Shown here: piece after piece, positions 4,759 through 56,022 of the stretch
Layout: every line of letters begins with the position of its first letter
Numbering within the stretch: the stretch's first letter is position 1
Assembly (NCBI GenBank): GCA_028865305.1
Contig: JAGWKM010000002.1
Location: 3,236 to 67,235 of the forward strand
DNA from: Patescibacteria group bacterium
Lineage (GTDB): Bacteria; Patescibacteriota; Minisyncoccia; UBA6257; 2-01-FULL-56-20
Length of the DNA: 64,000 bases
Direction of reading: 5' to 3'
Notes under the pieces: generated by a model
Databases searched by the model: none
What the model saw: only the letters and a program-made list of their open reading frames with translations
Told to the model about the DNA's origin: nothing
Position numbers and translations under genes: made by a program

Positions 4759-5652
4759 CTAATCCTTTCGGCGTCTTCCATGAAACGCCTCGTGGACTTC
4801 TTTTAATTCCTTATTAGTGAGATGCGTGTAAATCTGCGTTGTTGAAATATTCGAATGGCCGAGGAGTTCCTGCACGGAGCGGATGTCGGCGCCGTTCACC
4901 AAGAGATCCGTCGCGAAGGAATGGCGCAGTAAATGCGCATGCACGTTTTTCGGGATGCCGGCTTCTTTCGCGCGGCGCGCAACCAACCTTTGCACGGCCC
5001 GCGGCGTAATCTTGCCAATGACTTTGCCCGATTTATCCAGACTCACGAACAATTTTTCTTCAACGTCGGTGCGTTTTTTCAAATAATCTTCGATTGCCTT
5101 TTTTGCCGAATCAGAGAGGAACACGACGCGCAGCTTGTCTCCTTTGCCGCGCACGGAAAGTTCGCCGCGCCGCAGGTCCACGTTGCGCAGCAGGGAACAG
5201 AGTTCCGCCAGGCGCAAGCCGGTCGAAAAGAAGGTTTCGAGGATTGCCCGGTCGCGCAAGTCGCGCATGCCATCCCCTTTCGGCGCCGCGAGCAGGCGCT
5301 CCAAATCGCCGTATTCCAAAACTTCGATCTGCCGCGACGGCGCTTTCGGCAGTTCGATTTTTTCAGCCGCAAGCGATTTGACGTCGCGCTTCGCGAGATA
5401 TTTCAAAAAGTTCCGCAGCGCGATAATGTAATAGCTTTGCGTCAATTTTTTCAGGTCTTTCCGGGCCAGCGCCAGCCGGAATTCGCGGACCACATCGTCC
5501 GTAATATCCGCCGCCGCCTTCACTTTCGAAAATTCCAGGAATTCGCGGAGATAATGCTCGTAATTTTCCCGCGTCTTCGGCGACCGGTTTTTCTCGATTT
5601 CGAGGTAATTCAGGTAGTCGCGAATGAAGTTTTTGATTTCTGTTTCGGCCAT
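4759..5652 (-). CDS. xerC: tyrosine site-specific recombinase, XerC/XerD-like
   Basis: N-terminal SAM-like domain (FIRDYLNYLEIEKNRSPKTRENY). C-terminal catalytic HLLRHSFAT (HxxR) and GHSNISTTQIYTH (Tyr nucleophile). Confidence 0.9.
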   Translation of the reverse strand: MAETEIKNFIRDYLNYLEIEKNRSPKTRENYEHYLREFLEFSKVKAAADITDDVVREFRLALARKDLKKLTQSYYIIALRNFLKYLAKRDVKSLAAEKIELPKAPSRQIEVLEYGDLERLLAAPKGDGMRDLRDRAILETFFSTGLRLAELCSLLRNVDLRRGELSVRGKGDKLRVVFLSDSAKKAIEDYLKKRTDVEEKLFVSLDKSGKVIGKITPRAVQRLVARRAKEAGIPKNVHAHLLRHSFATDLLVNGADIRSVQELLGHSNISTTQIYTHLTNKELKEVHEAFHGRRRKD

Positions 5653-5660
5653 GGGAGGGG

Positions 5661-5775
5661 GAGTAGAATGGAGAATGGAGAATGGAGAATGGAGAATGGA
5701 GAATGGAGAATGGAGAATGGAGAATGGAGAATGGAGAATGGAGAATGGAGAATGGAGAATGGAGAATGGAGATGA
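5661..5775 (+). repeat. perfect tandem heptamer array (AATGGAG)x15 with degenerate flanks
   Basis: Counted from the sequence: 5667-5771 is 105 bp, 15 identical units. Flanked by gagtag and atgaatc partial units. Lies between the divergent xerC-like and rpsO genes. Confidence 0.97.
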
Positions 5776-5825
5776 ATCTTTCTACTTCTTCAGTCTACCA
5801 AAAACCTGTCGCAAAATGCAGCGGC

Positions 5826-6907: not shown

Positions 6908-9049
6908 ATGCTGAACAAAAAATCTTATTCAACAGAAATCGCAGGAAAGACATTGACCATCGAAACTTCTGAGCTCGCCGAACAGGCGAACGCGGCGGTC
7001 ATTGCGAAATACGGCGAGACCGTCGTCCTCGCGACCGCCGTCATGGGGAAAAAAGAAACCGAGCTTGATTACATGCCGCTCAAAGTGGATTACGAAGAAC
7101 GGTTTTACGCCGCCGGAAAGATCATCGGCTCGCGCTTCATCCGCCGCGAAGGCAGGGCTTCGGAAGAAGCCGTCCTCGCCGGGCGCCTGATCGATCGGAC
7201 CATCCGTCCCCTCTTCGACGGCCGCATGCGGCGCGACATCCAGGTCGTCGCCACGGTTTTGCAAATCGACGAACAGAACGATCCGGAATTCGTGAGTTTG
7301 CTTGCCGCTTCAACGGCGCTCATCATTTCCGACATTCCCTGGGGCGGCCCCGTCGCCGGCGTGCGCATCGTGCAGACAGAAGACCGTCTTCTGGACGAAG
7401 ACGGTCTTCATGTCAATCCGGACAATTCCTACGTGGCCGAGCACCAGCCGATTTTCGACGCATTCGTTTCCGGCTCGAAGGACCGCATCAACATGATCGA
7501 GCTCGGCGGCCTGGACGCCCAGGAAAAAGAAGTGGTCGCCGGATTCAAGATGGCGCAACAGGAGATCAATAAGCTGATCGATTTCCAGCAGAATATCCAA
7601 AAGGAGATCGGCAAGCCGAAGGCGGCCGTCGTGCTCGCGGAGCCGGATCCGGAATTGAAATCCGCCGTCGAATCTTTTATTGCGGACAAGCTCGAAGCGG
7701 CCGTTTACCGCCCGAATAAGATGGAACAGCAAAGCGCCATCGGCAAGCTGAAAGAAGAGATGTTTGCCCACCTGAAAGAGATTTTTGATGCGAAAGAAAA
7801 GGCCTTCAGCGGCAAGGCGGCTGACTATTTATTCGAAGAAGCGATCAATGACCTAGTCCATAAGAATGTCCTCGAAAGCGAAAAGCGTCCGGATGGGCGC
7901 AAAACCGATGAACTGCGGCCGTTGAGCGGAGCCGTCGGGCTCTTCTCGCGCACGCACGGTTCGGCGCTCTTCATGCGCGGCAACACGCAGGCGCTTGCCA
8001 TCACGACGCTCGCGCCGCCGGGAGCCGAACAGCTCATTGAAACGATGGAAACGAACGGCAAGCGGCGCTTCCTTCTGCACTACAACTTCCCGCCGTATTC
8101 CGTCGGAGAAATCGGCAATTTCCGCGGTCCGGGCCGCCGCGAGATCGGCCACGGCAACCTGGCGCGCAAATCCCTGGAACGCTTGATCCCGACCAAGGAA
8201 GAATTCCCCTACACCATCCGCGTCGTTTCAGAAATCATGTCCTCGAATGGATCGTCCTCAATGGCAACGGTGTGCGCTTCGGCGCTGTCCATGATGGATG
8301 CCGGCGTGCCGATCAAGAAACCGGCAGCGGGCATCGCGATGGGGCTTATGATGGAACAAGGGACGGGAGACAAGGGACAAGGAAAATTCAAGATACTCAC
8401 GGACATCCAGGGGCCGGAAGACCATCACGGCGACATGGACCTGAAAGTGGCAGGCACGGAGGACGGCGTGACCGGCATGCAGATGGACGTCAAGGTGGAC
8501 GGGCTCACGATCGAAATTTTGGAAAAAGCGTTCGAGCAGGCGAAAAAGGCGCGGCTCGAAATCCTGAAAGTGGTGAAGGCGACGCTGCCGACGCACCGCG
8601 AAAAATTGTCGCCGTTCGTGCCGACCATCCGCCAGCTGAAGATCGGTGTCGAAAAGATCGGCGCACTCATCGGCCCGGGCGGCAAGGTAATCAACGGACT
8701 CATTGAGAAATACAACCTGGCAGGCATTGATGTCGACGAAGACGGCGGCGTGTTCGTTTCCGGTTCCGACCTCGAAAAGGTGGAAATGGCGGTGACGGAA
8801 ATCAAATTGATCACGCGCGAATTCAAGGTGGGCGAGATTATCGAAGGCAAGATCATCAAAACGCTGGACTTCGGCGCGATTGTCGACCTCGGCGGCGGCA
8901 AGGATGGCATGATCCATGTTTCGGAATTGAAGCAGGGATTCGTGAAAACGGTGAATGAAGTGGTAAAAGTGGGCGACTTCGTCCGCGCGAAAATCATACG
9001 AGTGGACGAGGACGGAAAGATCGGCCTGTCGCTGAAGCAAATGCAATAA
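6908..9049 (+). CDS. pnp: polyribonucleotide nucleotidyltransferase (PNPase)
   Basis: 713 aa. Two RNase PH-like halves (FLLHYNFPPYSVGE, GDMDLKVAGT), then KH (IGALIGPGGKVI) and S1 (VGEIIEGKI...DGMIHVSEL) domains. Confidence 0.97.
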   Translation: MLNKKSYSTEIAGKTLTIETSELAEQANAAVIAKYGETVVLATAVMGKKETELDYMPLKVDYEERFYAAGKIIGSRFIRREGRASEEAVLAGRLIDRTIRPLFDGRMRRDIQVVATVLQIDEQNDPEFVSLLAASTALIISDIPWGGPVAGVRIVQTEDRLLDEDGLHVNPDNSYVAEHQPIFDAFVSGSKDRINMIELGGLDAQEKEVVAGFKMAQQEINKLIDFQQNIQKEIGKPKAAVVLAEPDPELKSAVESFIADKLEAAVYRPNKMEQQSAIGKLKEEMFAHLKEIFDAKEKAFSGKAADYLFEEAINDLVHKNVLESEKRPDGRKTDELRPLSGAVGLFSRTHGSALFMRGNTQALAITTLAPPGAEQLIETMETNGKRRFLLHYNFPPYSVGEIGNFRGPGRREIGHGNLARKSLERLIPTKEEFPYTIRVVSEIMSSNGSSSMATVCASALSMMDAGVPIKKPAAGIAMGLMMEQGTGDKGQGKFKILTDIQGPEDHHGDMDLKVAGTEDGVTGMQMDVKVDGLTIEILEKAFEQAKKARLEILKVVKATLPTHREKLSPFVPTIRQLKIGVEKIGALIGPGGKVINGLIEKYNLAGIDVDEDGGVFVSGSDLEKVEMAVTEIKLITREFKVGEIIEGKIIKTLDFGAIVDLGGGKDGMIHVSELKQGFVKTVNEVVKVGDFVRAKIIRVDEDGKIGLSLKQMQ
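8353..8387 (+). repeat. heptad array inside pnp
   Basis: ggaacaa gggacgg gagacaa gggacaa ggaaaat. Encodes EQGTGDKGQGK between the conserved GIAMGL and ILTDI blocks. Confidence 0.75.
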
Positions 9050-9090
9050 GGCAGCCAGGCTTGCACCCCAAAATACTTTCCCAGGATCGC

Positions 9091-9119
9091 TTGACTTTGT
9101 TAAATCGCAGCGATAAGCT
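9091..9119 (+). promoter_or_regulatory. sigma70-like promoter
   Basis: TTGACT-N17-TAAGCT, about 45 nt upstream of the 9165 gene, which has a strong AAGGAG SD. Confidence 0.45.
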
Positions 9120-9164
9120 CTCGACAGTACCGGCAATAACCAGTTAGCCGCGAAGGAGATAAAT

Positions 9165-9632
9165 ATGAGTTGGGCGACAAGACAAAGAATCCGGTTCGTA
9201 ATTGAGGTTGACCCTCAATTTCATGATTCGCAAAGCAACAGGGCGCTACGAGCGTTGACGCGGACAAGAGGGATGCAAAAAGCCCTCGCTGTTCCCAGTC
9301 GGATGCTCGAGATGGCATACCACGGCGATTTCATGTCCAACCTCACGGCCGACAAGTTCCATGAGGAACGTACGGTGTGGGGAAGCTGGCTCATATCGCA
9401 TACGCAGAAAAGCCATTCGCTCAAACTGTTCTTGCAACGGGCAAGTATTATTTCATGCAAGATAGCTCCTCGGGTCCGTTATGAAAAGTTTTTCGGCGGC
9501 GCGATGGGGCTCCATCCGCACTACGGCATTAGTGTTGAGATAAAATTCAAGCGGAATCGGGAGCTCGTGGGCGATTTGGAGCTGATATTTCAACCGGATG
9601 GAACGCTTGCTTCTGAATCGGGCCCAGTGTAG
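9165..9632 (+). CDS. hypothetical protein (155 aa)
   Basis: AAGGAG 6 nt before the ATG, own promoter, and a terminator directly downstream. No family recognised. Confidence 0.6.
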   Translation: MSWATRQRIRFVIEVDPQFHDSQSNRALRALTRTRGMQKALAVPSRMLEMAYHGDFMSNLTADKFHEERTVWGSWLISHTQKSHSLKLFLQRASIISCKIAPRVRYEKFFGGAMGLHPHYGISVEIKFKRNRELVGDLELIFQPDGTLASESGPV

Positions 9633-9658
9633 GGGAAGAGATTATGACATCGGCATCG

Positions 9659-9687
9659 GCAGCCTGCTCAGCGGGCTGCTTTTTTTC
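9659..9687 (+). terminator. rho-independent terminator
   Basis: GCAGCC-tgctcagcg-GGCTGC followed by T7. Confidence 0.75.
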
Positions 9688-9724
9688 ATTTCACATTCAA
9701 TAAAAAGACCGCATTGGGATGCGG

Positions 9725-9958
9725 CTATGCTGCCATTGGGAGCTCTTCTCGCAATTCGCTTTCGCGATCAAATTCTTCAAATATTTCTCTTTCTTCTTCG
9801 AATGGGTCGACTGGGCAACGATCGTGCCGTTTTAATATTATGAAATGCGACCCGTCTATGACTACGTCTCCGGTATATCCTTCACCCGGCAAAATGTCAT
9901 GGAAACATTCGTCGCAAAAATGAGTGATTCGCGCCGCGGAATGGTAAGTCCGAATCAT
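9725..9958 (-). CDS. hypothetical small protein (77 aa, acidic C-terminus, CxxC)
   Basis: AGGAGG 8 nt upstream of the ATG (rc of 9959-9975). Convergent with the 9165 gene. Confidence 0.6.
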   Translation of the reverse strand: MIRTYHSAARITHFCDECFHDILPGEGYTGDVVIDGSHFIILKRHDRCPVDPFEEEREIFEEFDRESELREELPMAA

Positions 9959-10013
9959 CCAAGCATCCTCCTTCGATGTTCTGACTCCAGTTTATACCAA
10001 AAAGACCAGCAAT

Positions 10014-10409
10014 TCAAAAGCCGGCTTTCTTTTCGAGTTTTTTCACTCGGACTTCCAAATCTATCACGTCCGCCTGGCAATCGACTTCCTTTATATTTTC
10101 GCGGATTTCCTTTAATTCACCTAAAATTTCTATGAACCGATTGTCTGTTGACCTTTCCAGCTTGTCGAATCGTTCACTTAAAATATCAGCCCTTTCTGTC
10201 AAGGCAAGTAAATCCTCCTGTTTTGCCATTTTCCCTTCCATTTCTGAAAAACCATTCTGCGCCATCCGCGCCAGGGACTCTATATCTTCTTTTGTTGAAA
10301 CCTTTTCCGCAAGCGCGTCTACGGTTCCCGTCAAGGTATCTACGGTTCCCACAAGCGTATCCAAACTGCCCGCCAGTGATTCTAATGTAACCTCTTTTTT
10401 ATCGTTCAT
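10014..10409 (-). CDS. hypothetical coiled-coil protein, paralogue of 23414..23623
   Basis: ORF track lists 10014..10451. The start at 10409 (MNDKK...) is preferred because the homologous upstream region of the paralogue places the ATG at the same GGAATTATG. Shared LARM..NGF and RV..LEKK.G segments. Confidence 0.6.
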   Translation of the reverse strand: MNDKKEVTLESLAGSLDTLVGTVDTLTGTVDALAEKVSTKEDIESLARMAQNGFSEMEGKMAKQEDLLALTERADILSERFDKLERSTDNRFIEILGELKEIRENIKEVDCQADVIDLEVRVKKLEKKAGF

Positions 10410-10416
10410 AATTCCA

Positions 10417-10444
10417 ATGGTATTAAAAAAGATTTCGAAGTCAA
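10417..10444 (-). promoter_or_regulatory. sigma70-like promoter, leaderless geometry
   Basis: Minus strand: TTGACT-N16-TACCAT-N7-ATG(10409). Homologous to the promoter at 23630..23657. The conserved 17-nt box ATTATGTAATCATTAAA lies further upstream (10462-10478). Confidence 0.4.
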
Positions 10445-10524
10445 ACTTCATTTAATGAAAATTTAATGATTACATAATACCTGATTATCTTGTCCGATTC
10501 CGCCAACTCACAAAACAGGAATCT

Positions 10525-10880: not shown

Positions 10881-10913
10881 TTCAACAGCTTTCCGGATAT
10901 GTTTTCCGATTGC

Positions 10914-11092
10914 GTTCAACTCCGCGGCGAAGGAATCGAACTCGATGCAGGTAAAATGCGATTTGCAGAGCGTCGATTTGAGGGAGAGACGGACGGTGGC
11001 AAACTCGAGATCAGATTTTTCGAGGTTTTTAGACGGTAAGCCTTTTTTGAGAGACGGACGGTTGGCAAACCCTAAAATGATAAAATGAAGAT
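10914..11092 (+). repeat. conserved intergenic module E1 (contains two GGACGGT(T)GGCAAAC boxes)
   Basis: Aligns along its length with 12535-12715: AACTCCG.G.CGAAGGAATCGAAC.CGATG...TGCGA.TTGCAGAGCGT...GGCAAACTCGAGATCAGATTTT...GAGAGACG.A.GGTTGGCAAAC. Confidence 0.8.
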
Positions 11093-11845
11093 ATGAACCA
11101 AAGAGGTTTTGCGCCAATTATTATTCTGCTAATCGGGGTGGGCGTTTTGGTTGCCGGTGGTATCGGCTACTACGCTATCCGTAATAGCATGATTCAATCC
11201 GAAACATCCCAAACAACTATAACTTGGCTCCAGCAACCTTATGAGGTCACGTTATTTCCGGGCACGGTAAAAGCGGTTGATCTGCATTTCATTGCAAGCC
11301 ACAACCTCTCGGCACCATCGCTTTACATATCACCTTCCTTGTCTCGATATTTAACCTTCGCCAATATCGGTTCTGGTACGCTTTTCGGAAATGAGCAAGC
11401 GACGCTACACGCGCGGTTTACAATTCCGGATTCGATACCGTCTGGTACTTATAGCGGAGTAGTTCAAATAAAAAATGGAGGTAACGATATTGAACAACCA
11501 TTGACAGCAACCATCCACGTCGAAATCCCATCAAATCAAATTATCCCACAAGAAACTGCTTCTCCCTCTCCAGACCGCATCATGACTACGGCCGGAGGGG
11601 CAACTATAGTGAAAGATGAAATTGATGTAATGCTTGCAGATGATACGTCGAATCCCGACGAAACGATAAGAGCAATAGCAACTGCAACAAACGGTCTTAT
11701 TATCGGCTCTGTCCCCGACGGGCTTACTTATCAGCTAAAATATAAAGTTTCGAACATAAACGATCTTCAGCAAATTCAAGCCAAAATAAAAAAGATGCCA
11801 CACGTAGAGGACGCTGTATTTTCTGTATTTGGCGGATTAAACTAA
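11093..11845 (+). CDS. hypothetical N-terminally anchored exported protein (copy 1 of duplicated gene)
   Basis: 250 aa with an N-terminal TM (FAPIIILLIGVGVLVAGGIGYY). Near-identical over most of its length to 54576..55328. The C-terminal part resembles a protease-prodomain-like fold, which is a weak impression. Confidence 0.75.
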   Translation: MNQRGFAPIIILLIGVGVLVAGGIGYYAIRNSMIQSETSQTTITWLQQPYEVTLFPGTVKAVDLHFIASHNLSAPSLYISPSLSRYLTFANIGSGTLFGNEQATLHARFTIPDSIPSGTYSGVVQIKNGGNDIEQPLTATIHVEIPSNQIIPQETASPSPDRIMTTAGGATIVKDEIDVMLADDTSNPDETIRAIATATNGLIIGSVPDGLTYQLKYKVSNINDLQQIQAKIKKMPHVEDAVFSVFGGLN

Positions 11846-11986
11846 GCTCAAATTAAAACTGTTTAAGATAAAATATTCGTAAATCCCTCTCACCAGAGTT
11901 TACCAGTTGCCCCGATTGACTCCACCGACACGGTTTCGAACTCTCGGAAATGAGAGTTTATTCTGCATTTATCTGAACATTCTACT

Positions 11987-12493
11987 ATGGATATTTTTGC
12001 TCATGCGCTTTATACAAATGCGATTTACAAAAGTGCGCAGAAACGCAAGCGCACATGGCGCGAGATAGTGGAGATAGTTTTCTGGGGCGATTTTCCCGAT
12101 CTGGTAACCTTCGCCATCTTTGGCGTTTACTGGTATTTCAAGAACAGTCTTGTTTATGTTCCGGGAAGTGAATATCTTGTACCGCCCTATTTAGAATTTC
12201 TCCTTCCAACTCTTTATAGCATTCCTCTTTTCCTTTTAATCTTTTCCGTCCTTTGGCTGATTCGAGGAAAACCTTACTGGCCGGTCGGTGGTTGGGGCAT
12301 TCACATCGTCATTGACGTATTCACGCACAGTGGTTTTTATCCACCCCAATTCTTATGGCCATTTTCCGATTATCATTTCAGCGGCATCGCTTGGGATACG
12401 CCATGGTTCTGGTTTGTAACTTACACTTTACTCGTTATAGTTTACAGTTATTGGTATTTTGAAATCAGAAAGCAAGAGCGGGATGCAAAATGA
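11987..12493 (+). CDS. membrane protein, DUF457/YdjM-like metal-dependent hydrolase (tentative)
   Basis: 168 aa. MDIFAHALY start and HIVIDVFTHSG motif, with 4-5 hydrophobic segments. Confidence 0.6.
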   Translation: MDIFAHALYTNAIYKSAQKRKRTWREIVEIVFWGDFPDLVTFAIFGVYWYFKNSLVYVPGSEYLVPPYLEFLLPTLYSIPLFLLIFSVLWLIRGKPYWPVGGWGIHIVIDVFTHSGFYPPQFLWPFSDYHFSGIAWDTPWFWFVTYTLLVIVYSYWYFEIRKQERDAK

Positions 12494-12715
12494 GATATTC
12501 GTAAATCCCCCTTACCAGAGTTTGCCAGTTGTCCGGAAGAACTCCGTGACGAAGGAATCGAACCCGATGAATGAGAAATGCGACTTGCAGAGCGTTGTTT
12601 CGGGAGAGAGATGGACGTTGGCAAACTCGAGATCAGATTTTCCGATGCTTTTGGACGGTAATTCCTTTTGAGAGACGAATGGTTGGCAAACTCTTGTGTT
12701 TGATATAATTAAGTT
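12494..12715 (+). repeat. conserved intergenic module E2 (IR-R box, internal box, IR-L box)
   Basis: GAGTTTGCCAGTTGTCC at 12518-12534. GGACGTTGGCAAACTC at 12613-12628, followed by GAGATCAGATTTT. GACGAATGGTTGGCAAACTC at 12674-12693. Confidence 0.85.
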
Positions 12716-13540
12716 ATGAATCGAAAAGGGTCTGTGTTGATTCTTGTCCTGGTCATCGTGTTAGTCCTATTAGCAATCGGAGGCTATTGGTATTATGGGA
12801 TGCGCAAAATCCCATTGCCTCCGACCACGGCAAATACTTCGCAAACACCACCCATACAGAGTTCATCCATTTCAAGCGTGGATCCTAATGCCGCAAAACA
12901 AGCAGCTACCGTGGTTTTGGCCCAAATTTCCCAATATCCATTTCTTTCTCTTGTTCCAATAAATCGGACCATTAGTTCTTATACCCCCACGAGTTCGCAT
13001 GAATTCACCTACGAAGGAATATCTTTGAAATTGCCATGGTCGGGTACTCCCAAGATACAAACTTTATCAGGAGTTGGCACACAGATAAAATTCCCGAACA
13101 ATGAATTCGTGATGCTTCCAAATCCGTATCCTGACCCACTCCATCGGCAAACATTTCTGGATTCAATAAAGACAAACGAAGATAGGGAAAAATTTAACTA
13201 CTTATTCGGGGAGGAAAATTTAAACTCCAATTCTGCATTTTTCAATTTGGTGTTGAACAGTAGCCCCACAACACTTTCTTCCACAACCTCATCACCTAAG
13301 GAACTTTTAGCCCAATCAATGCTTCTCCCCATAAAACTGACTATGTTCTTTGATTCCAGCACCCAATCTATCTACCAATTTTCGACACCGGATTTCAAAG
13401 TATTTGAATTTACCGATCTACCAGCAAAGAATCAGTCATTTATTTACCTTTACGACGCAAGAGATAACGGAAGATTAATTACTACTTCTGCGAATCAGAA
13501 CGAAATTGATTTCATTTTGTCTTCAATAAAGGAACAATAA
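12716..13540 (+). CDS. hypothetical N-terminally anchored exported protein
   Basis: 274 aa with an N-terminal TM (VLILVLVIVLVLLAIGGYWYY). Bracketed by the same inverted-repeat boxes as 11093..11845. Confidence 0.7.
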   Translation: MNRKGSVLILVLVIVLVLLAIGGYWYYGMRKIPLPPTTANTSQTPPIQSSSISSVDPNAAKQAATVVLAQISQYPFLSLVPINRTISSYTPTSSHEFTYEGISLKLPWSGTPKIQTLSGVGTQIKFPNNEFVMLPNPYPDPLHRQTFLDSIKTNEDREKFNYLFGEENLNSNSAFFNLVLNSSPTTLSSTTSSPKELLAQSMLLPIKLTMFFDSSTQSIYQFSTPDFKVFEFTDLPAKNQSFIYLYDARDNGRLITTSANQNEIDFILSSIKEQ

Positions 13541-13683
13541 ATCCCCTTGACCAGAGTTTGCCAGTTGTCCAGAAAAACTCCACTTCTTCGCTAGCTAGAG
13601 GCTCTTCCGCGCCCGAAAAGCGGGCAAGGAACAATAAACGCAGTCAGTATTCATGGCTAGAAGTAGAGTAGCAGAAAATTAGA

Positions 13684-13881
13684 CCGCGCGCAAATCGATC
13701 GACGGCCAAAAACGGCAATATGTTTTGCGGGGCTCTCGGAAGCGGTTTGGCACGGTCCGGCCGTTCACTCACGGCCGGCAAACCGCTGAGAGCGATTGCG
13801 CGCCGTCGCTGGACGGCGCGACAATGTACCCGCAAAAGCATATTGCCGTTTTTGGCCATTCCCAATCTGATTTGCGCGCGG
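13684..13881. repeat. GC-rich nested-palindrome module (4 helices) abutting the recA stop
   Basis: P1 13684-13696/13869-13881 (13 bp perfect). P2 13704-13731/13829-13857 (about 27 bp, one bulge). Hairpin P3 13732-13793. Hairpin P4 13796-13824 (loop GCTG). Confidence 0.85.
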
Positions 13882-13885
13882 AATT

Positions 13886-14989
13886 TTATTCCTCCTCTTT
13901 TCCGGCCGCTTTCTCCGGCGATTCGCCCCTCTCCACCATCTCCACCACTTTCTTTCTGATATCGTTCAGCAACTTTCTGTCTTCCTTCAGCTTTGCCCGC
14001 GTATTCTCATACCCCGCACCCAGCCGTTCGCCTTCAAACGAGTAGCTCGCGCCCGATTTTTTAACCACGCCGTAATTCACCGCCGTGTTCAACACGTCGC
14101 CTTCGTATGAAATCCCCTCGCCGAACAGAATATCGAACTCCGCCGAACGGAACGGCGGCGCCACCTTATTTTTCACCACCTTCGCCTTCACGCGGTTCCC
14201 CACCACATTCTCCCCTTTCTTCACCTGCGCGATACGGCGGATATCAATACGGACCGAGGCCGCAAACGGCAAGGCCCGTCCGCCGGGAGTCGTTTCCGGA
14301 TTCCCGAACATTATGCCGATCTTCATGCGGATCTGGTTGATGAAAATGATCAGGGTCTGCGTCTGTGCCGCTATTGCCGTGAGTTTCCGCAACGCCTGTC
14401 CCATCATCCGCGCCTGGCGCCCAACGTGCTGCTCGCCCATTTCGCCCTCAAGTTCCGCGCGGGGCGTGAGCGCCGCCACCGAATCGACAACCACCACCGA
14501 AATCATCCCCGACCGAACCAAGCTTTCCAATATATTCAACCCTTCCTCGCCGCTGTCCGGCTGGGAAATCAGCAATTCATTCACCTTCACGCCCAATTTT
14601 GCCGCGTACTCCGGATCCATGGCGTGCTCTGCGTCGATATAGGCCGCTTTGCCGCCCTGTTTTTGGGCCTGCGCTACCACGTTCAACGCGAGCGTCGATT
14701 TGCCGCTTGATTCAGGCCCGTAAATCTCCACAATCCGCCCGCGCGGCATGCCGCCGACGCCAAGCGCCAGGTCCAGCGAAAACGAACCGCTCGGAATGAC
14801 CGCCACGTCCGTGTGCCGCACCTCCCCAAGCCGCATGATCGCACCTTCGCCGAACTTATCCTGAAGTGAAGTGAGTAGCTGCTCAAACTGCTTATCCTGC
14901 TTATCTTGCTTCCCCTGCTCCTTGTTTTTCGCGTTTTGCGCCTTGATTTCCGCCTCCGCCGTCCCGCCAACTTTTTTTTCTTTAGCCAT
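13886..14989 (-). CDS. recA: recombinase RecA
   Basis: [12 protein letters not shown] Walker [13 protein letters not shown], and L1/L2 regions. The N-terminal extension of about 20 aa carries a 9-bp repeat (KQDKQDKQ). Confidence 0.97.
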
Positions 14990-23629: not shown

Positions 23630-23657
23630 AGTTTAAAAATTCATTTTTGAAAGTCAA
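23630..23657 (-). promoter_or_regulatory. sigma70-like promoter, leaderless geometry
   Basis: Minus strand: TTGACT-N16-TAAACT-N6-ATG(23623). Conserved upstream box ATTATGTAATCATTAAA at 23675-23691. Confidence 0.45.
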
Positions 23658-23773
23658 ATTTTATTTAATCTTTTTTTAATGATTACATAATCTCTGGATC
23701 CCGGGTCAATCCTCGGAATGACACAACGTCAAACTTGGTGTAGTATATGAATAAAGCGGAATTAAACCGCTTT

Positions 23774-38244: not shown

Positions 38245-40725
38245 ATGAAACCAAAATCACAACAATTTACATTGAAATTCGAGGAGGTTGGCATTAAGGA
38301 TGTGGGGCTCGTCGGCGGGAAGAACGCTTCGCTTGGGGAAATGATACGAACGTTAAAATCAAAAGGCGTGCCGGTGCCTTCCGGGTTTGTTGTCACGGCA
38401 GCGGCATACTTCCATTTTTTAAGGGAAACCGGTCTTGATACATTCATTAAAAAAACATTAAAAGACCTGGATACCAAAAATCTGAAAGAGCTCCATCGCT
38501 GCGGCTCGGCCATTCGGAACGCGATGATGCGGACGGATTTCCCGAAAGATCTCGAGGCGGAGATCGTACAATCCTACCGGACGCTTGAAAAGCGATACGG
38601 CAAAAGCGCCGATGTCGCCGTACGCTCCTCGGCGACCGCAGAAGACCTCCCGGGCGCAAGCTTTGCGGGAGAACAGGAAAGCTATCTCGGCATCCGCGGC
38701 CCGGAAGAGGTTCTGAAGGCCGTCCGCGCAACGATGGCCTCGCTCTTCACCGACCGCGCCATCTCCTACCGCGCCGACCGCGGCTTTGACCACTTCAAAA
38801 TCGCGCTCTCGGCCGGCGTGCAAAAAATGGTCCGCTCGGACCGCGCCTGCTCCGGCGTCATGTTCACCCTCGACACCGAATCCGGCTTCCCGCACGTCGT
38901 TTTGATCAACGGTTCGTGGGGCCTGGGCGAGATGATCGTGAAAGGCGAGGTTACTCCGGATGAATTTTTGGTTTGGAAAAAACCGTTTTCTAATTTAACG
39001 AAATTAGAAAATGCGCATTTGCCGATTATCGACAAGAAGCTGGGCGTTAAACTGCGCAAGATGGTTTACCATCACGGCTCGGCCATTGAACAGACAAAAA
39101 TCGTGCCGACAACCGAAGCCGAACGGACTACGTTCGTCCTCACCGACAAAGAAGTGCAACAGCTCGCGCGCTGGGGAACCATCATCGAAAAGCATTACAC
39201 CGACCATTATAAAAAGTGGACGCCGATGGACATGGAATGGGCAAAGGACGGCGTGAGCGGCGAACTGTTCATCGTACAGGCCCGACCGGAAACGATCCAT
39301 GCCGGACGCGATTTTTCCAAAATCAAGGAATACCAGCTGCTCGATGCCGGCGGCCGGGAGCCCGCCCTTGCGGGCGCCGCGGTGGGATCCAAGATCGCCA
39401 ACGGCAAGGCGCATATCATCCTGGACGCGAAGCATATCGGCGATTTCAAGAAGGGCGAAATACTCGTGACCACCATGACCGATCCCGACTGGGAACCGAT
39501 CATGAAAATCGCTTCGGCCATCGTGACCGATAAAGGCGGCCGCACGAGCCATGCTGCCATCGTAAGCCGCGAGCTCGGCATCCCGGCGGTTGTCGGCACG
39601 GAGAAAGCGACGAAAGAGCTGGGGACCGGCGATCCGATTACCGTCGACACAACAGGGAGCGCCGGGAAGGTCTACCGCGGACTGCTGAAATTCAAAATCG
39701 TCGAACACGACCTGAAAAAGATCCCGCATCCGAAGACGAAAGTGATGGTGAATGTCGCCATTCCGGACAGTGCATTTGAAACTTCCTTCCTGCCGACGGC
39801 GGGCGTGGGCCTTGCGCGCGAGGAATTCATCATTGCCTCGAAAATGGGACTGCATCCGATGGCGCTTTTGGACATGGAGAAAGGAGAAAGGAGAAAGGAG
39901 AAAGGGTTCGCCCAGATCAGCGAAGCGATAAAAAAGAAGATGATGGGCTGGCATGACCCGAAACAATATTACATCGACAATCTGGCGTTTGGCATCGCGA
40001 AGATCGGCGCGGCTTTTTATCCCAACCGCGTCATCGTCCGCTTCTCCGATTTCAAATCGAACGAATACCGAACCCTGCTCGGCGGCGACCCGCACGAACC
40101 GAAGGAAGAGAATCCGATGATCGGCTGGCGCGGCGCTTCGCGGTATTATGACCCGAAGTTCAAGCCAGCGTTCATGCTTGAGGTGGCGGCGATCAAAAAA
40201 GTGCGTGAGGAAATCGGGCTTCAAAACGTGATCCCCATGGTGCCGTTCTGCCGGACTACGGAAGAAGGCATGAAGGTGCAGGAGGCAATGGCCGAAGCGG
40301 GAGTATATACCAATTTCACGGGGAAAAAAGGAAAGGAAATCACGCCGATTTACGTGATGTGCGAAATCCCTTCTAATGTCTTACTGGCAGACGAATTCCT
40401 CGACATTTTTGACGGCATGTCGATCGGCTCAAACGACCTCACGCAGCTTACGCTCGGCCTGGACCGTGACTCAGGCATCGTAAGCCGTGTTGCAAACGAG
40501 AATAATGAGGCAGTCAAAAAATTGGTCGGCGACGTTATCGCGAAATGCCGCGCCCGGAAAAAATACATCGGCATCTGCGGCCAGGCGCCGTCGGATTATC
40601 CCGATTTCGCCACTTTCCTTGTTGAAAAGGGCATCGAAAGCATCTCGCTGAATCCGGATACCGTCGTCCGGACGACGGTGGCAATTGCAAAAAAGGAACT
40701 GGAATTGAAACGGCGGAAAAAGTGA
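38245..40725 (+). CDS. ppsA: phosphoenolpyruvate synthase
   Basis: 826 aa. ATP-grasp N-terminus (VGGKNASLGEM), phosphohistidine swivel GGRTSHAAIVSRELGIPAVVG, and a PEP-utilising C-terminal TIM domain. Confidence 0.95.
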   Translation: MKPKSQQFTLKFEEVGIKDVGLVGGKNASLGEMIRTLKSKGVPVPSGFVVTAAAYFHFLRETGLDTFIKKTLKDLDTKNLKELHRCGSAIRNAMMRTDFPKDLEAEIVQSYRTLEKRYGKSADVAVRSSATAEDLPGASFAGEQESYLGIRGPEEVLKAVRATMASLFTDRAISYRADRGFDHFKIALSAGVQKMVRSDRACSGVMFTLDTESGFPHVVLINGSWGLGEMIVKGEVTPDEFLVWKKPFSNLTKLENAHLPIIDKKLGVKLRKMVYHHGSAIEQTKIVPTTEAERTTFVLTDKEVQQLARWGTIIEKHYTDHYKKWTPMDMEWAKDGVSGELFIVQARPETIHAGRDFSKIKEYQLLDAGGREPALAGAAVGSKIANGKAHIILDAKHIGDFKKGEILVTTMTDPDWEPIMKIASAIVTDKGGRTSHAAIVSRELGIPAVVGTEKATKELGTGDPITVDTTGSAGKVYRGLLKFKIVEHDLKKIPHPKTKVMVNVAIPDSAFETSFLPTAGVGLAREEFIIASKMGLHPMALLDMEKGERRKEKGFAQISEAIKKKMMGWHDPKQYYIDNLAFGIAKIGAAFYPNRVIVRFSDFKSNEYRTLLGGDPHEPKEENPMIGWRGASRYYDPKFKPAFMLEVAAIKKVREEIGLQNVIPMVPFCRTTEEGMKVQEAMAEAGVYTNFTGKKGKEITPIYVMCEIPSNVLLADEFLDIFDGMSIGSNDLTQLTLGLDRDSGIVSRVANENNEAVKKLVGDVIAKCRARKKYIGICGQAPSDYPDFATFLVEKGIESISLNPDTVVRTTVAIAKKELELKRRKK
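39876..39903 (+). repeat. perfect (GGAGAAA)x4 inside ppsA
   Basis: Counted four identical units. Encodes EKGERRKEKG between the swivel and C-terminal domains. Confidence 0.9.
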
Positions 40726-47862: not shown

Positions 47863-47942
47863 TTTAATTCAGGAGTATGGAGAAAGAAGAATGGAGAATG
47901 GGTTGCCCTTTCTCCATTCTCCCTACTCCATTCTCCATCTCT
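47863..47942. repeat. inverted heptad arrays (GGAGAAT-type) between hppA and clpP
   Basis: ggagaaa gaagaat ggagaat gggttgc | cctttct ccattct ccctact ccattct ccatctc. AGAATGGAGAA pairs with TTCTCCATTCT. Confidence 0.8.
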
Positions 47943-53679: not shown

Positions 53680-53987
53680 GGGGACGCATTGGCTTTGATA
53701 ACGATGGGCTGCGGGTTTGCGGGCCGAAGGCGCGGGCGTTACAGCGCATCCATTATAACTGGCAACTCTCGAGTTCCAGCTCCGAGCTTCGCTTTCGCCT
53801 AGCTTGGGATCGGCCAATCCGGGCTTCTTGGGTTGACGCCGGTCTTATACAAGGAAGCTAAGCTCTCCGCGACGATTCTGACGGAGAGACGAAAACTAAG
53901 AATCATTTTGCCTAACTCGTTTAGACTACGCCCGTAGAAGATCCGCGAGTCCCATCGTTACACGAGGTTTCGATACCTCCGTCTCCA
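53680..53987 (+). ncRNA. ssrA: tmRNA (SsrA)
   Basis: 5' GGGGACG pairs with 3' CGTCTCC-A, giving the G3-U70 alanine identity pair. T arm GAGG-TTTCGATA-CCTC. The internal tag frame 53761-53802 (GGC AAC TCT ... GCT TTC GCC TAG) encodes GNSRVPAPSFAFA*. CCA not encoded. Confidence 0.82.
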
Positions 53988-54151
53988 CTCGACGCGCCCT
54001 CCTTATGGAGGGCTTGCTCGTGGTAAACCACCTACCCGCTCGCAGAACAATCAATGAAATAACTCGCGCGTCGAGTGCCCTGAGCGAGTCTTCGAGTCGA
54101 AGGGCATATTTTTTAACGTTTATTTAATCTTTGTTTTATATAATCCCAATC

Positions 54152-54421
54152 ATGTACTTCGTTTACATGATCAAAAATGATTTCGACAAGCTTTACGTCG
54201 GCATTTCCGGCAACGCTAATAAGCGAGTTCACACCCACAGTTCGAATCGTGGTGCAAGATTTACAAAGGGCAAAGCAAAATTTCGATTAGTTTTTAAGGA
54301 AGAATACGAAACATTGGCGGAAGCCAGAAAACGTGAAATCCAAATCAAAAAGTGGCGGCGAGAGAAGAAAGAAATGCTAGTCGAGAAATATAGAAAAGGA
54401 TTGCCGACGAAAATGGAATAA
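54152..54421 (+). CDS. GIY-YIG nuclease superfamily protein (YhbQ/UPF0213-like)
   Basis: FVYMIKNDFDKLYVGISGNANKRVHTH...EARKREIQIKKWRREKK. TATAAT at 54139-54144 is only 7 nt from the ATG at 54152. Confidence 0.8.
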   Translation: MYFVYMIKNDFDKLYVGISGNANKRVHTHSSNRGARFTKGKAKFRLVFKEEYETLAEARKREIQIKKWRREKKEMLVEKYRKGLPTKME

Positions 54422-54575
54422 GCGACTATTTAGCAGTTGCGGTTTCGAATTCTCCTAAACGAGAGTCTATTCTGTATTTATCTGAACAATTTTGAGTTTT
54501 CCAAAATTCACCAAAATGGCAGAAATTGAGGTAGAGACGGACGGTTGGCAAACTTTTATTTGATATAGTTAAGGT
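54422..54575 (+). repeat. intergenic module E3 with IR-L box
   Basis: 54436-54490 is homologous to 11928-11982. GGACGGTTGGCAAACT at 54539-54554 matches 11056-11072. Confidence 0.8.
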
Positions 54576-55328: not shown

Positions 55329-55452
55329 ACTCATAGTGAAACTGTTTAATATAAAATATTCGTAAATTCATCGTACCAGAGTTTGCCAGTTGTCCGGAAC
55401 AACTCCGCTGTGTTTTTTGTATTAGTACAATCCTGGATTGTTTTGCAATAAA

Positions 55453-56022
55453 TCATTCCACCTCTCTCACGCGCTGCACGTCGGTTTTCCTTAAAAGTTC
55501 CGCCTGAAGCTCCTCCGCTAACTCTCGGTCGATCACCGGCAAAGTACCCTCAGATTCACCTTCCGGCTTCTGCTCGTCCTCGTGTCCCGCAGTGAGGATG
55601 ACCAAACGGCATACGCCGAGCATGCGGTCAGTAATATCCTGTTCAATGTCAACGTCTTGAATCTGGCGATAGGGAATGGCAATTTCTTCGCGGTTAAACA
55701 CGCCGCGGCGGATCTTCAGGGCGTCATCTTGAAGCGCATATTGATAATTGATATAGATCAACCAGGAAACGAAGATTGCGATAAGGAAGGTGATGAGGAA
55801 TATTCCGGAAGCGATCATCGCCGCCCACAGGCCATAGATTGCGAGATCGCCAAGGGGAGTTTTTGCCAAGAGATTCGCCTGATTTAAGCCGAACAATCCG
55901 GCGGCAACGACCAAAAAAACCATGGATGGCGCGATCCGGTCCAAAATAAACACCCAGAGCGTTTTCCGGCTAAGGCGGCGATAGGGAATATCAACCACTG
56001 CGCTTGCTTCGTCGATTGCCAT
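55453..56022 (-). CDS. bacterial PH-domain (bPH_2/DUF304, YdbS-like) membrane protein
   Basis: Two TM helices followed by YALQDDALKIRRGVFNREEIAIPYRQIQDVDIEQ. Confidence 0.8.
   Translation of the reverse strand: MAIDEASAVVDIPYRRLSRKTLWVFILDRIAPSMVFLVVAAGLFGLNQANLLAKTPLGDLAIYGLWAAMIASGIFLITFLIAIFVSWLIYINYQYALQDDALKIRRGVFNREEIAIPYRQIQDVDIEQDITDRMLGVCRLVILTAGHEDEQKPEGESEGTLPVIDRELAEELQAELLRKTDVQRVREVE

Follow-up and report, generated by a model that had tools for sequence, protein, structure and literature searches.

Single-gene units bounded by U and D boxes in CPR DNA: candidate integrase-less islets related to the tmRNA 3' end

What are the short inverted boxes that bracket genes of exported proteins at two loci of this genome? 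The preliminary description of the DNA considered mobile cassettes, a clamp between the untranslated ends of each mRNA, and operators of a secretome regulon. We analyzed the window, i.e. the whole 64-kb stretch of DNA, together with contigs of other genomes, designated by L-numbers. Most likely, the boxes mark the two ends of small integrase-less islets, rather than being RNA clamps or ordinary regulatory sites.

Boxes, units and arrays in the window

The D box (GAGTTTRCCAGTTGYCC) occurs in four exact copies within 64 kb, starting at 11896, 12518, 13554 and 55379. The U box (GGACGGTTGGCAAACYC) is located at 11056–11072, at 12677–12693 (2 mismatches) and at 54539–54555 (1 mismatch), and a shorter copy of 16 nt, termed U', is present twice (10991–11006 and 12613–12628); U' and U form direct repeats 64–65 nt apart. 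Compared as inverted repeats, U and D match at 13–17 of 17 positions. Reading of the sequence revealed no internal dyad symmetry in D, U or the ATTCGTAAATCC region. The numbers of U and D boxes were reached in none of 100 dinucleotide shuffles (expectation, about 0.3 matches). Both box types are absent from the remaining 60 kb of the window and confined to two arrays of low GC content (42%, as compared to 52% for the window). U ends 20–22 nt upstream of the ATG codons at 11093, 12716 and 54576, and D starts 50, 24, 13 and 50 nt past the stop codons of the genes P1, P2, P3 and P4, respectively, which bears out the box positions, D copies and gene distances of the preliminary description. The sequence ATTCGTAAATCC precedes D in three of four cases, as had been noted, being exact at D elements 1 and 2 and having one mismatch at D element 4; D element 3 is preceded by the reduced form AATAAATCC only. 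D is the core of an element of about 48 nt, composed of TAAATCC, 9 nt, D, 6–8 nt, and CTCCAC, with (A/G)CTCC(A/G)C always present 6–8 nt after D. A profile search of the 64 kb retrieved exactly four such elements, and the 9-mer core GAGTTTGCC / GGCAAACTC is restricted to the two loci.

Array 1, all features of which are given on the plus strand, as are those of array 2, opens with a degenerate D-like box, ATGTTTTCCGATTGCG (10899–10914), followed by the core AACTCCGC; this left edge (10899–10925) agrees with D element 2 plus core at about 18 of 27 positions. The homology between the spacer modules E1 (10926–11048) and E2 (12548–12669) opens at this core and extends to U, with 84% identity over 153 nt (10918–11070 vs. 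12540–12691), in accordance with the alignment reported earlier. E1 contains an inverted T-arm-like box, Ua (GGCGAAGGAATCGAAC), U', and a hairpin with a T-run detected by the terminator scan (CTCGAGATCAGATTTTTCGAG, 11004–11024); E2 contains Ua (GACGAAGGAATCGAACCC) and U', and in both modules U' is followed by CTCGAGATCAGATTTT. The left end of the P1 unit, a GAGAGAC prefix plus U (11049–11072), is exactly where the P1/P4 homology starts. An extended –10 box, TGATAAAAT (11078–11086), 6 nt before the ATG, is a predicted leaderless promoter. P1 (11093–11845) codes for a protein of 250 aa with an N-terminal membrane helix, which has no Pfam match and whose sole homologue is P4. D element 1 (11880–11925) consists of TAAATCC, 9 nt, D (11896–11912), 7 nt, and CTCCAC, and the P1/P4 homology stops at 11925. 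The 49-nt D12 module (11931–11979), with the hairpin AACTCTC-GGAAAT-GAGAGTT, is followed by P2 (11987–12493), which is without a U box and encodes a YdjM-like polytopic membrane protein of 168 aa (Pfam YdjM at E=1.8e-6, just under the curated cutoff). D element 2 (12502–12547; D at 12518–12534, core AACTCCGT) and E2 lead to the left end of the P3 unit (GAGAGAC prefix plus U, 12670–12693), the extended –10 box TGATATAAT (12701–12709, 6 nt before the ATG), and P3 (12716–13540), coding for a protein of 274 aa with an N-terminal membrane helix. Homologues of P3 in other genomes lack the boxes. D element 3 (13538–13583; D at 13554–13570, core AACTCCAC) forms the right edge of the array. P1, P2 and P3 are mutually unrelated proteins. 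No tRNA or tmRNA gene was found near array 1, which is located about 40 kb upstream of the tmRNA gene.

Array 2 begins directly after the tmRNA gene (53680–53990; Rfam RF00023, 79.8 bits; 3' end AGGTTTCGATACCTCCGTCTCCAC). Its first unit is a small GIY-YIG nuclease gene (54131–54421; Pfam GIY-YIG, E=2.9e-14) with a probable start at 54152 and a predicted TATAAT box ending 7 nt ahead of that ATG. In the adjoining segment (54427–54488), a degenerate D, CTATTTAGCAGTTGCGG (54427–54443), is fused to a second copy of D12 (54440–54488, 88% identical); TTTAGCAGTTGC and TTTACCAGTTGC agree at 11 of 12 positions, and the core region, compared to 11896–11979, is missing due to a 21-nt deletion. Relative to the boxes, D12 follows D in the first locus but precedes U in the second. 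The P4 unit starts with a TAGAGAC prefix plus U (54532–54555; box search and tmRNA-end comparison) and contains P4 (54576–55328), a paralog of P1 (87% amino-acid identity, dS 0.22); a dN/dS of 0.29 indicates purifying selection on the cargo genes. Homologues of the P1/P4 pair were not found elsewhere. D element 4 (55363–55408; D at 55379–55395, core AACTCCGC), the right edge of array 2, lies 44 nt from the stop codon of a convergent YdbT-like gene. The P1/P4 homology spans the region from AGAGAC plus U to ACTCCRC past D, with unrelated flanks outside; the copied unit is thus bounded by U and by D plus core. A TGnTAnAnT box ends 6 nt before the ATG of P1, P3 and P4. These predicted promoters imply leaderless mRNAs from the extended –10 position, which would not include U.

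We found no serine recombinase gene in the 64 kb and no regulator gene in the arrays, and no transposase was seen. The sole tyrosine recombinase of the window, the XerC/D-like gene previously noted about 5 kb away as the only recombinase nearby, is located at a distance of 5.3 kb and codes for an ordinary Xer-type protein of 297 aa (Phage_integrase and SAM-like N-terminal domains); no link to the boxes was found.

The tmRNA 3' end and islands in other genomes

The boxes were compared to the tmRNA 3' end by fixed-position shuffles (2000) after a similarity had already been noticed. In this post hoc comparison, each of the five boxes (three U, two U') fits the reverse complement of the tmRNA 3' end present in the window itself (p ≤ 0.003), the fit to the tmRNA of L051 being poorer. 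None of the 2000 shuffles was as good as the U box of P1, the U box of P4, which is complementary to the tmRNA 3' end at 17 of 24 positions, or Ua of E2; p values were 0.0015 for the U box of P3, and 0.0015 and 0.034 for U' and Ua of E1, respectively. The minus strand of E2 aligns with the final 95 nt of the tmRNA (z=4.1). A resemblance to the inverted tmRNA 3' end is thus shown for U; the similarity of D to the tmRNA 3' end is weak (p 0.02–0.3), and the direct repeat common to the window arrays and the tmRNA end comprises CTCC(A/G)C only (6–7 nt).

Distant Paceibacteria (CPR) contigs contain a nearly identical D element, namely L004, L007, L011 (with two copies) and L012, where neighboring genes and orientations differ; in some contigs D lies between, or upstream of, divergent genes, and in L011 the D elements flank a methyltransferase gene. 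Eight of nine intact copies of the 17-nt D are identical, in hosts whose IF-3 and YdbT proteins share 71% and 49% identity, respectively, and amid unrelated flanks. L011 and L012 have U-like boxes in an equivalent position ahead of genes, but the sequence of these boxes differs while D is invariant.

In other genomes, islands that have inserted at the tmRNA gene carry the D element at their distal end. L012/L051 contain an islet of 1,299 bp between the tmRNA end and a D element, with two genes, no integrase, and a GC content of 45%, as compared to 52–54%. The L051 islet is flanked by a 15-nt direct repeat, TCCACTTGACCGGAA, the sole exact repeat of at least 14 nt in that 2 kb, and an intrinsic terminator follows its distal copy. 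A 4.8-kb island of L057, with genes of a large serine recombinase and a reverse transcriptase, is ended by a D-like element, which is homologous to the L051 element over about 95 nt, with GGTTCAGCTCCAC identical; it is this one island end that associates D with a recombinase. The tmRNA site is polymorphic among strains with 99% identity: L054 is 99.2% identical to L051 as far as CCACTTGA and then carries a different insert, the break being exactly at the tmRNA end. The gene of the large serine recombinase, the one also carried by the L057 island, is part of the L054 insert and reads into the tmRNA end. A recombinase gene with this orientation is also present in L030, the closest relative found (YdbT 79% identity). 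In L056, a large serine recombinase (532 aa) adjoins a small one (247 aa) on the reverse strand beside the tmRNA gene, and in L027 the tmRNA and YdbT genes adjoin directly, without an insert between them. Among the features of Islander-type genomic islands, which target tRNA or tmRNA genes, adjacency to the 3' end of such a gene is seen in array 2, L051, L056 and L057, but not in array 1; integrase genes are present in the islands of L056, L057 and L030, but neither in the window arrays nor in the L051 islet.

Attachment-site halves and competing explanations

The proposal of mobile cassettes without a mobility gene came closest to these findings, however not in the form of transposons with terminal repeats; the evidence favors attachment-site halves of tmRNA-type islets. 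With a probability of roughly one half, the boxes are the two halves of a split attachment site and belong to mini-islets that are not autonomous but depend on a recombinase acting in trans, probably of the serine type. We regard it with the same even confidence that the two loci may represent tandem arrays of one-gene islets (0.6–1 kb) without integrase, and that these islets may belong to integrative elements of Paceibacteria which insert at the tmRNA 3' end. The D element (TAAATCC, 9 nt, GAGTTTGCCAGTTGTCC, 7 nt, CTCCAC) would be the right-end half of the attachment site. The U-type box (GAGAGAC-GGACGGTTGGCAAACTC) would be the inverted half, located at the left end of a unit; presumably, it reproduces the reverse complement of the resident tmRNA gene, namely of its T-arm and acceptor strand. 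Because the site halves are inverted repeats, each inserted gene would be bracketed by U and D. The recombinase would be supplied in trans, the likeliest source being a CcrB/DsiB-like large serine recombinase of a sister element; a recombinase of the type proposed is seen at the tmRNA gene of relatives. Arrays may have grown by serial insertion or accretion, with units being reshuffled through recombination at the boxes, and each cargo gene would be transcribed from a leaderless promoter of its own, immediately inside U.

The 9-bp outer motif GGCAAACTC is situated 16–24 nt from the left unit boundary, the same geometry as that reported for the zinc-ribbon motif in attP half-sites of serine integrases (PMC3783163). 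Counting against the islet reading are the lack of any recombinase in the 64 kb beyond the Xer-like gene, the position of array 1, which has no adjoining tmRNA or tRNA gene and only a degenerate D as its left flank, and the asymmetry of the D half (30 nt to the core end) and the U half (24 nt). Moreover, serine integrases normally do not reuse attL or attR, so that tandem arrays need an extra step, such as accretion, attP-like junctions or homologous exchange. Neither an empty site nor a circular junction nor a strain polymorphism came to light for this genome, whose proteins are missing from the records searched. That a recombinase binds the boxes, and which one, and that the units of the window are, or were, mobile, we infer from the sequence, as we do for the crossover position and the way in which array 1 arose 40 kb from the tmRNA gene.

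It is rather unlikely that the boxes are fossil scars, i.e. decayed ends of old tmRNA-type islands combined with local duplications. The window without a recombinase gene, the degenerate D boxes at 10899–10914 and 54427–54443, one of which lost its core by deletion, the mismatches accumulated in U and D of P1, and the age of the P1/P4 pair (dS 0.22) would be consistent with decay. However, the conservation of D across distant organisms, amid unrelated flanks, argues that it is a working site, and the cargo genes are under purifying selection.

A small chance also remains for regulatory DNA, with U as operator or activator site of one transcription factor and D as a second inverted site acting by looping or as a roadblock at gene ends. 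Three U boxes end 5–8 nt before an extended –10 box, which corresponds to the –35 position, U-like boxes are equally placed before genes in L011 and L012, and the U/U' direct repeats occur in two to three copies; for U, the operator of a secretome regulon considered in the preliminary description is possible. It does not account for D: D elements 3 and 4 lie between convergent genes, with nothing downstream to regulate, and D or D-like elements are found beside genes of a membrane protein, the L011 methyltransferase and the L057 reverse transcriptase. Across genomes, D is more conserved than U. In addition, the other 60 kb of the window are without boxes, no regulator gene is contained in the arrays, and regulation leaves the match of U to the inverted tmRNA end and the tmRNA-linked polymorphism unexplained.

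Less probable still are cassettes of the MITE or mobile insertion cassette type, in which U and D would be terminal inverted repeats recognized by a DDE transposase encoded elsewhere. Inverted repeats indeed bracket single genes and bound the copied P1/P4 unit. However, the search for target-site duplications was negative at all three U...D units, which are flanked by GAGAC on the left and by CGATT, AGAAA and GGAAC on the right, and the transposon form is therefore not supported. Conserved sequence extends beyond the right repeat at a fixed distance (7 nt plus CTCCAC), D often occurs alone (P2, L004, L007, L011, L012), the L051 insertion adjoins the tmRNA end with a 15-nt direct repeat, and a transposase was not seen.

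Very improbable is an RNA element, in which U and D (17 bp including three G-U), or D and U' in the spacer, pair in the sense transcript as mRNA-end clamp, RNase III or terminator structure: U and D of P4 do pair at 17 of 17 positions as plus-strand RNA, the three departures of this unit from a perfect inverted repeat being G-U pairs on the sense strand, and this pair would prevail in the fold of an RNA that contained both boxes (P ~0.98 for P4; 11–13 pairs for P3), but with the predicted leaderless promoters U would not be part of its own mRNA, three C-A or A-C mismatches abolish the P1 pair, and four of six substitutions in the U and D boxes of the window break pairs, with none compensatory. 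In view of the same observations, the clamp between 5'UTR and 3'UTR proposed earlier is not supported. Besides, the U-like boxes of L011 and L012 have changed without any change in D, some D elements precede or separate divergent genes, spacer RNA folds no better than shuffles (z –0.4, –1.6), and spacer folds as DNA show no strand preference (z –2.2, –2.3). Boxes and spacers have no Rfam match, even at E ≤ 10, and the scan for intrinsic terminators (GC-rich hairpin plus U-run) gave nothing at any D.

Relation to known mobile elements

The units resemble the ssrA islands of Dehalococcoides (McMurdie et al. 2011, PMC3146451), low-GC tandem islands downstream of a single tmRNA gene, each bounded by a repeat of the tmRNA 3' end and showing, immediately ahead of the distal repeat, a conserved motif without relation to ssrA. 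Two serine recombinases, one large (~540 aa) and one small, are encoded there on the reverse strand beside attL, an arrangement matched by L056; many of the islands lack an integration module and were proposed to be cis-mobilizable. The boundary motif and units without recombinase are found here as well, the recombinase pair only in another genome (L056). However, ssrA islands comprise several kb, as compared to single-gene units of 0.6–1 kb, and their tmRNA repeat is 20 nt, as compared to 6–7 nt here and 15 nt in L051. In the window, the left end of a unit is marked by the U box, which copies the tmRNA 3' end in inverted orientation, one array is located 40 kb upstream of the tmRNA gene, the host belongs to the CPR, and a recombinase gene of this kind is missing.

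Cis-mobilizable elements (CIMEs) and SCC-type composite islands without ccr genes are flanked by att sites, contain no recombinase or transfer genes, and occur in tandem with autonomous relatives whose recombinase serves them. CIMEs are also mentioned in the ssrA island study (PMC3146451). The units described here share the att-like flanks and the lack of an own recombinase, their dependence on a helper being presumed; they differ in that CIMEs and SCC-type islands are kilobases long with direct att repeats, whereas here inverted half-sites around one gene are most visible.

Sites of serine integrases (attP/attB) comprise about 50 bp with two inverted half-sites, each with a distal 9-bp motif (Rutherford et al. 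2013, PMC3783163). The corresponding motif here would be GAGTTTGCC / GGCAAACTC, and a right end and a left end, once joined, form an imperfect palindrome (about 54 bp) in which the outer 9-mers match at 8–9 of 9 positions. As in attP/attB, the half in the tmRNA gene is the shorter one, by about 5 nt relative to the D half. On the other hand, the D and U halves differ in length, and serine integrases do not normally produce tandem arrays. In Acinetobacter pdif modules, MITEs and mobile insertion cassettes, too, genes lie between short inverted sites and the unit contains no mobility gene, but here the right end has fixed extra motifs (TAAATCC and CTCCAC), and target-site duplications are missing. 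An Xer/dif module (pdif, IMEX), with a site of 28–31 bp in which two inverted 11-bp arms surround a center of 6–8 bp, was rejected because no 11-6-11 dif-like dyad is present within U or D, and a dispersed repeat of the REP, BIME or Correia type because the boxes occur only in two arrays within 64 kb.

Integron cassette arrays also consist of single-gene units of unrelated function, with the recombinase encoded outside the cassettes and an inverted-repeat motif on each side of the gene that derives from a site split between neighboring units. Here, however, the last unit is terminated by D alone instead of a complete site, and the sites resemble the tmRNA end. An integron proper was dismissed: neither intI nor attI adjoins the array, the Xer-type protein being encoded 5.3 kb away; RYYYAAC / GTTRRRY cores are missing in the required positions of U, D and the D...U' spacer on both strands; and the cassettes are not promoterless, with promoters predicted for P1, P3, P4 and the GIY-YIG gene. 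As a speculative and rather doubtful prospect, CPR bacteria may nevertheless have an integron-like cassette platform of a different build. A serine recombinase encoded elsewhere would use attachment sites imitating the tmRNA 3' end, including secondary chromosomal sites far from the tmRNA gene, to capture, stack and reshuffle single genes that bring along a promoter of their own and mostly code for surface or exported proteins.

Boxes, spacers and breakpoints

The upstream box U, GGACGGTTGGCAAACYC, has plus-strand copies at 11056, 12677 and 54539, and its inverted partner D, GAGTTTRCCAGTTGYCC, has exact copies at 11896, 12518, 13554 and 55379, as located by direct reading and pattern search; dinucleotide-shuffled versions of the window never contained as many of either box. 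U precedes the start codons of the genes P1 (11093–11845), P3 (12716–13540) and P4 (54576–55328) by 20–25 nt, and D follows the stop codons of these genes and of P2 (11987–12493) by 13–50 nt, as the preliminary description had given. The spacers E1 (10914–11092) and E2 (12494–12715) have 153 nt in common with 84% identity, and both contain U', a 16-nt shorter copy of U, followed by CTCGAGATCAGATTTT. Every D is preceded at a fixed distance of 9 nt by TAAATCC and followed after 6–8 nt by the core (A/G)CTCC(A/G)C, which together form a D element of about 48 nt. Within the 64 kb, the 9-mer box core and the D-element profile matched in two loci only, namely array 1 (10899–13583), which contains P1, P2 and P3, and array 2, which contains a GIY-YIG gene and P4 and extends to 55408. 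The counts, the distances, the spacer similarity and this confinement confirm the pattern as originally observed. Degenerate D boxes occur at the left edge of array 1 (10899–10914) and 3' of the GIY-YIG gene (54427–54443), and a 49-nt hairpin module, D12, is located after D in locus 1 (11931–11979), with a second copy upstream of U in locus 2 (54440–54488).

To judge by the source names of homologues of a flanking protein, the organism is a CPR bacterium of the Paceibacteria type. Both arrays have a GC content of 42%, as compared to 52% in the remaining window. Array 2 extends from the 3' end of tmRNA (gene at 53680–53990) to 44 nt short of a convergent YdbT-like gene's stop codon. P1, P2 and P3 are mutually unrelated proteins. 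P1 and P4 had no homologues other than each other among 5.8 billion proteins, P2 is YdjM-like, and homologues of P3 are present in other CPR contigs, where they adjoin RHS toxin genes and are not accompanied by boxes. The P3 homologues in L034 (4248–5057), L035 (3859–4701) and L037 (3001–3711) are each arranged tail-to-tail with a giant RHS/YD-repeat toxin gene coding for 1372–1595 aa, with a gap of about 20–50 nt. A 51-nt direct repeat outside the arrays (10433–10483 and 23646–23696, 78% identity) probably marks a paralogous gene start, the first copy comprising the start and upstream region of a coiled-coil gene (10014–10451, minus strand).

The P1 and P4 genes share 90% DNA identity (dS 0.22, dN/dS 0.29). 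Their homology is limited on the left exactly by AGAGAC plus U, and on the right exactly by ACTCCRC after D; the flanks are unrelated, whereas neutral DNA of equal age would be expected to be still about 80% identical. The homology of E1 and E2 starts at the core that follows a D and continues to where U ends, and the D12 module is common to units with different genes. These limits and the sharing of D12 indicate that the arrays are mosaics, with breakpoints located either at U or at D plus core.

The tmRNA 3' end and its islets in relatives

In an inverted-repeat search, the tmRNA 3' end (53965–53988) paired with the P4 prefix and U at 17 of 24 positions. All five U and U' boxes, as well as the T-arm-like box Ua of E2, matched the reverse complement of the window's tmRNA 3' end in a fixed-position test (p≤0.003), and none of 2000 shuffles matched as well for U of P1, U of P4 and Ua of E2; since the comparison was made after the similarity had been noticed, these values are indicative only. 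The U-type boxes matched the tmRNA of the related contig L051 more poorly than that of the window. Their similarity to the tmRNA end accounts for the T-arm-like spacer motif, and for the finding that the minus strand of E2 aligns, although weakly, with the final 95 nt of tmRNA. D resembles the tmRNA end weakly; its derivation from a decayed tmRNA 3' region was rejected, there being no significant similarity over about 100 nt. Reversed D also matches the tag region of tmRNA (AACTGGCAA-CTCT), but a window this large is expected to contain exact 9-mer matches, and the match was attributed to chance. Immediately 3' of the tmRNA gene, the region 53986–54115 comprises a 12-bp perfect inverted repeat (53986–53997 with 54066–54077), whose first arm includes the tmRNA 3' end and which encloses a small hairpin, and a terminator-like hairpin (54089–54103) 3' of the repeat.

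Scanning with a D 20-mer retrieved related sequences. The D element of about 48 nt also occurs in a Saccharibacteria MAG (L004) and in the metagenome contigs L007, L011 (two copies) and L012, with flanks that are otherwise unrelated. It follows co-directional genes in some of these contigs and lies between divergent genes in others, indicating that it marks junctions and is no 3'UTR signal. Among representative genomes, the 20-mer gave six matches, with a common context in the Saccharibacteria MAG only; the other matches checked were chance or coding, for example an alpha/beta-hydrolase motif.

Contig L012 is syntenic with array 2 (YdbT-like gene, infC, tmRNA), its IF-3 being just 71% identical to that of the window. 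Between its tmRNA 3' end and D element it carries an islet of 1,299 bp with two genes, no integrase, and 45% GC. The 15-mer TCCACTTGACCGGAA, present at both islet boundaries, is the sole exact repeat of at least 14 nt in that 2 kb, and an intrinsic terminator is located 3' of its distal copy. The islet recurs in four more contigs (L051, L053, L055 and L062; L052 and L012 are one contig). An empty allele was not found in this lineage, the last contig examined (L062) likewise having the islet. Contig L054 is 99.2% identical to L051 up to CCACTTGA, where the C-terminal end of a large serine recombinase follows, whose gene reads into the tmRNA gene. The same recombinase is encoded at the tmRNA gene in L056–L060; in L056 it comprises 532 aa with Resolvase, Recombinase and Zn_ribbon_recom domains, and is followed by a small serine recombinase of 247 aa. 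The island of L057 (4.8 kb, 40% GC) has the recombinase at its beginning and a D-like element at its end, about 95 nt of which are homologous to the L051 element, with GGTTCAGCTCCAC identical; 3' of it is a long terminator hairpin. This island is the only complete one that links D to the recombinase. As for closer relatives of the window, a recombinase gene reads into the tmRNA end in L030, and L027 has no insert, its tmRNA and YdbT genes being directly adjacent.

Contig L057 also encodes an Eco57I-like N6-adenine methyltransferase fused in frame to the large serine recombinase (7269–10046, 925 aa). It is 99.99% identical to L056 up to position 8747, inside the fusion gene region, beyond which the cargo is unrelated. 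Past the D-like end and terminator (about 12150–12300), more tmRNA 3'-end fragments occur in both orientations, e.g. GATTCCGCCCGCTTCC, suggesting older insertion events at that hot spot.

Proposed attachment-site account and alternatives

The simplest account of the boxes is that a recombinase attachment site, related to the tmRNA 3' end, has D and U as its two halves in inverted orientation. Insertion would split the site, so that each inserted gene becomes bracketed by U and D. The units of the window and the L051 islet, which lack a recombinase, would depend on an enzyme supplied in trans, a candidate being the CcrB/DsiB-like serine recombinase found at the tmRNA site in relatives. Among the earlier proposals, that of mobile cassettes without a transposase in view comes nearest to this account, though in another form, with the boxes as probable attachment-site halves of tmRNA-type islets.

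Several points weigh against this account. No serine recombinase gene was found in the window, which encodes a single ordinary Xer-type tyrosine recombinase. Array 1 and the tmRNA gene are 40 kb apart, and the left edge of this array shows no more than a degenerate D; the repeat in common with the tmRNA gene measures just 6–7 nt in the window's genome, and serine integrases do not normally give rise to tandem arrays. Neither an empty site nor a circular junction was found for this genome; look-ups of the window's P1 and RecA, made to find an empty site of array 1, matched no contigs. The main rival explanations are that the arrays are now fixed fossils, and that U, which the P2 gene lacks, is also, or instead, a promoter-proximal operator. 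The Xer-like recombinase gene (4759–5652, minus strand) is itself preceded by about 19 tandem copies of the heptamer GGAGAAT (5651–5786), reaching to about 10 nt from its start codon, where slippage could turn the gene on or off; short similar tracts occur at 39857–39908 and 47871–47901.

The alternative that U and D pair as 5'- and 3'UTR to clamp each mRNA was not supported. In many genes of the window, P1, P3, P4 and the GIY-YIG gene among them, an extended -10 box ends 6–7 nt before the ATG and no Shine-Dalgarno sequence is present; with the box that near, the mRNAs are probably leaderless and would exclude U. Were both boxes in one RNA, they would pair at 17/17 positions for P4 and 11–13 for P3, the P1 pair being lost. 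Four of the six substitutions among the window's boxes give A–C mismatches and none is compensated, and L011 and L012 retain D unchanged but have different U-like boxes. TGnTAnAAT-type boxes 6–7 nt before the start codon without Shine-Dalgarno sequence, e.g. at the genes starting at 56022, 18878, 54152 and 11093, suggest that leaderless mRNAs are common in this organism. A structured spacer was likewise rejected, the RNA and DNA folds of E2 being weak or no better than those of shuffles, with neither strand favoured; tRNA/tmRNA and Rfam searches of the spacers were empty even at E≤10. Small ORFs in E1 and E2 were ruled out as coding, since the differences between the copies fall mostly at codon positions 1 and 2. 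The box pattern is real, but is not supported as an RNA device.

Phage origin was rejected because IMG/VR scans with D, U and the U' invariant gave coding-sequence matches or nothing, and integrons, dif-like sites, LexA boxes, DNA uptake sequences and diversity-generating retroelements were dropped on anatomy. Outside the arrays, between the last D element and the recA 3' end, lies a long, near-perfect hairpin of about 220 nt (13672–13892; RNA fold -140.9 kcal/mol, z = -11.9), the nested arms of which include 13684–13696 with 13869–13881 and 13704–13726 with 13835–13857. It matched no Rfam family and may represent an unknown RNA, a palindromic mobile element or a large terminator acting in both directions.

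Relation to known systems and implications

CPR bacteria (Patescibacteria) have tiny genomes, and little is known of how they gain and exchange genes; to our knowledge, they cannot be grown alone. Following the split attachment-site account, the finding is best classed as a variant of tmRNA-type integrative islands that is miniature, lacks an integrase and, in a CPR bacterium, is stacked into arrays. The closest described system is the ssrA island family of Dehalococcoides, whose low-GC members are arranged in tandem downstream of the tmRNA gene, with a conserved non-ssrA motif upstream of every distal repeat and with a large and a small serine recombinase encoded next to attL on the reverse strand; islands that lack integration modules are, in the authors' view, cis-mobilizable (PMC3146451). 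As compared to serine-integrase half-sites (PMC3783163), the U half of the window has a 9-bp outer motif at positions 16–24, and the D half exceeds the tmRNA-end half by about 5 nt. This geometry is compatible with such half-sites, but suggestive only.

If the boxes are fossils only, a striking repeat pattern is still explained without a new RNA mechanism. If they are working attachment-site halves, the 48-nt D element would provide a compact signature for mobile cargo in CPR metagenomes, single-gene surface-protein units would be swapped at a hot spot, and the serine recombinase and its site would be nominated as a candidate genetic tool for CPR bacteria.
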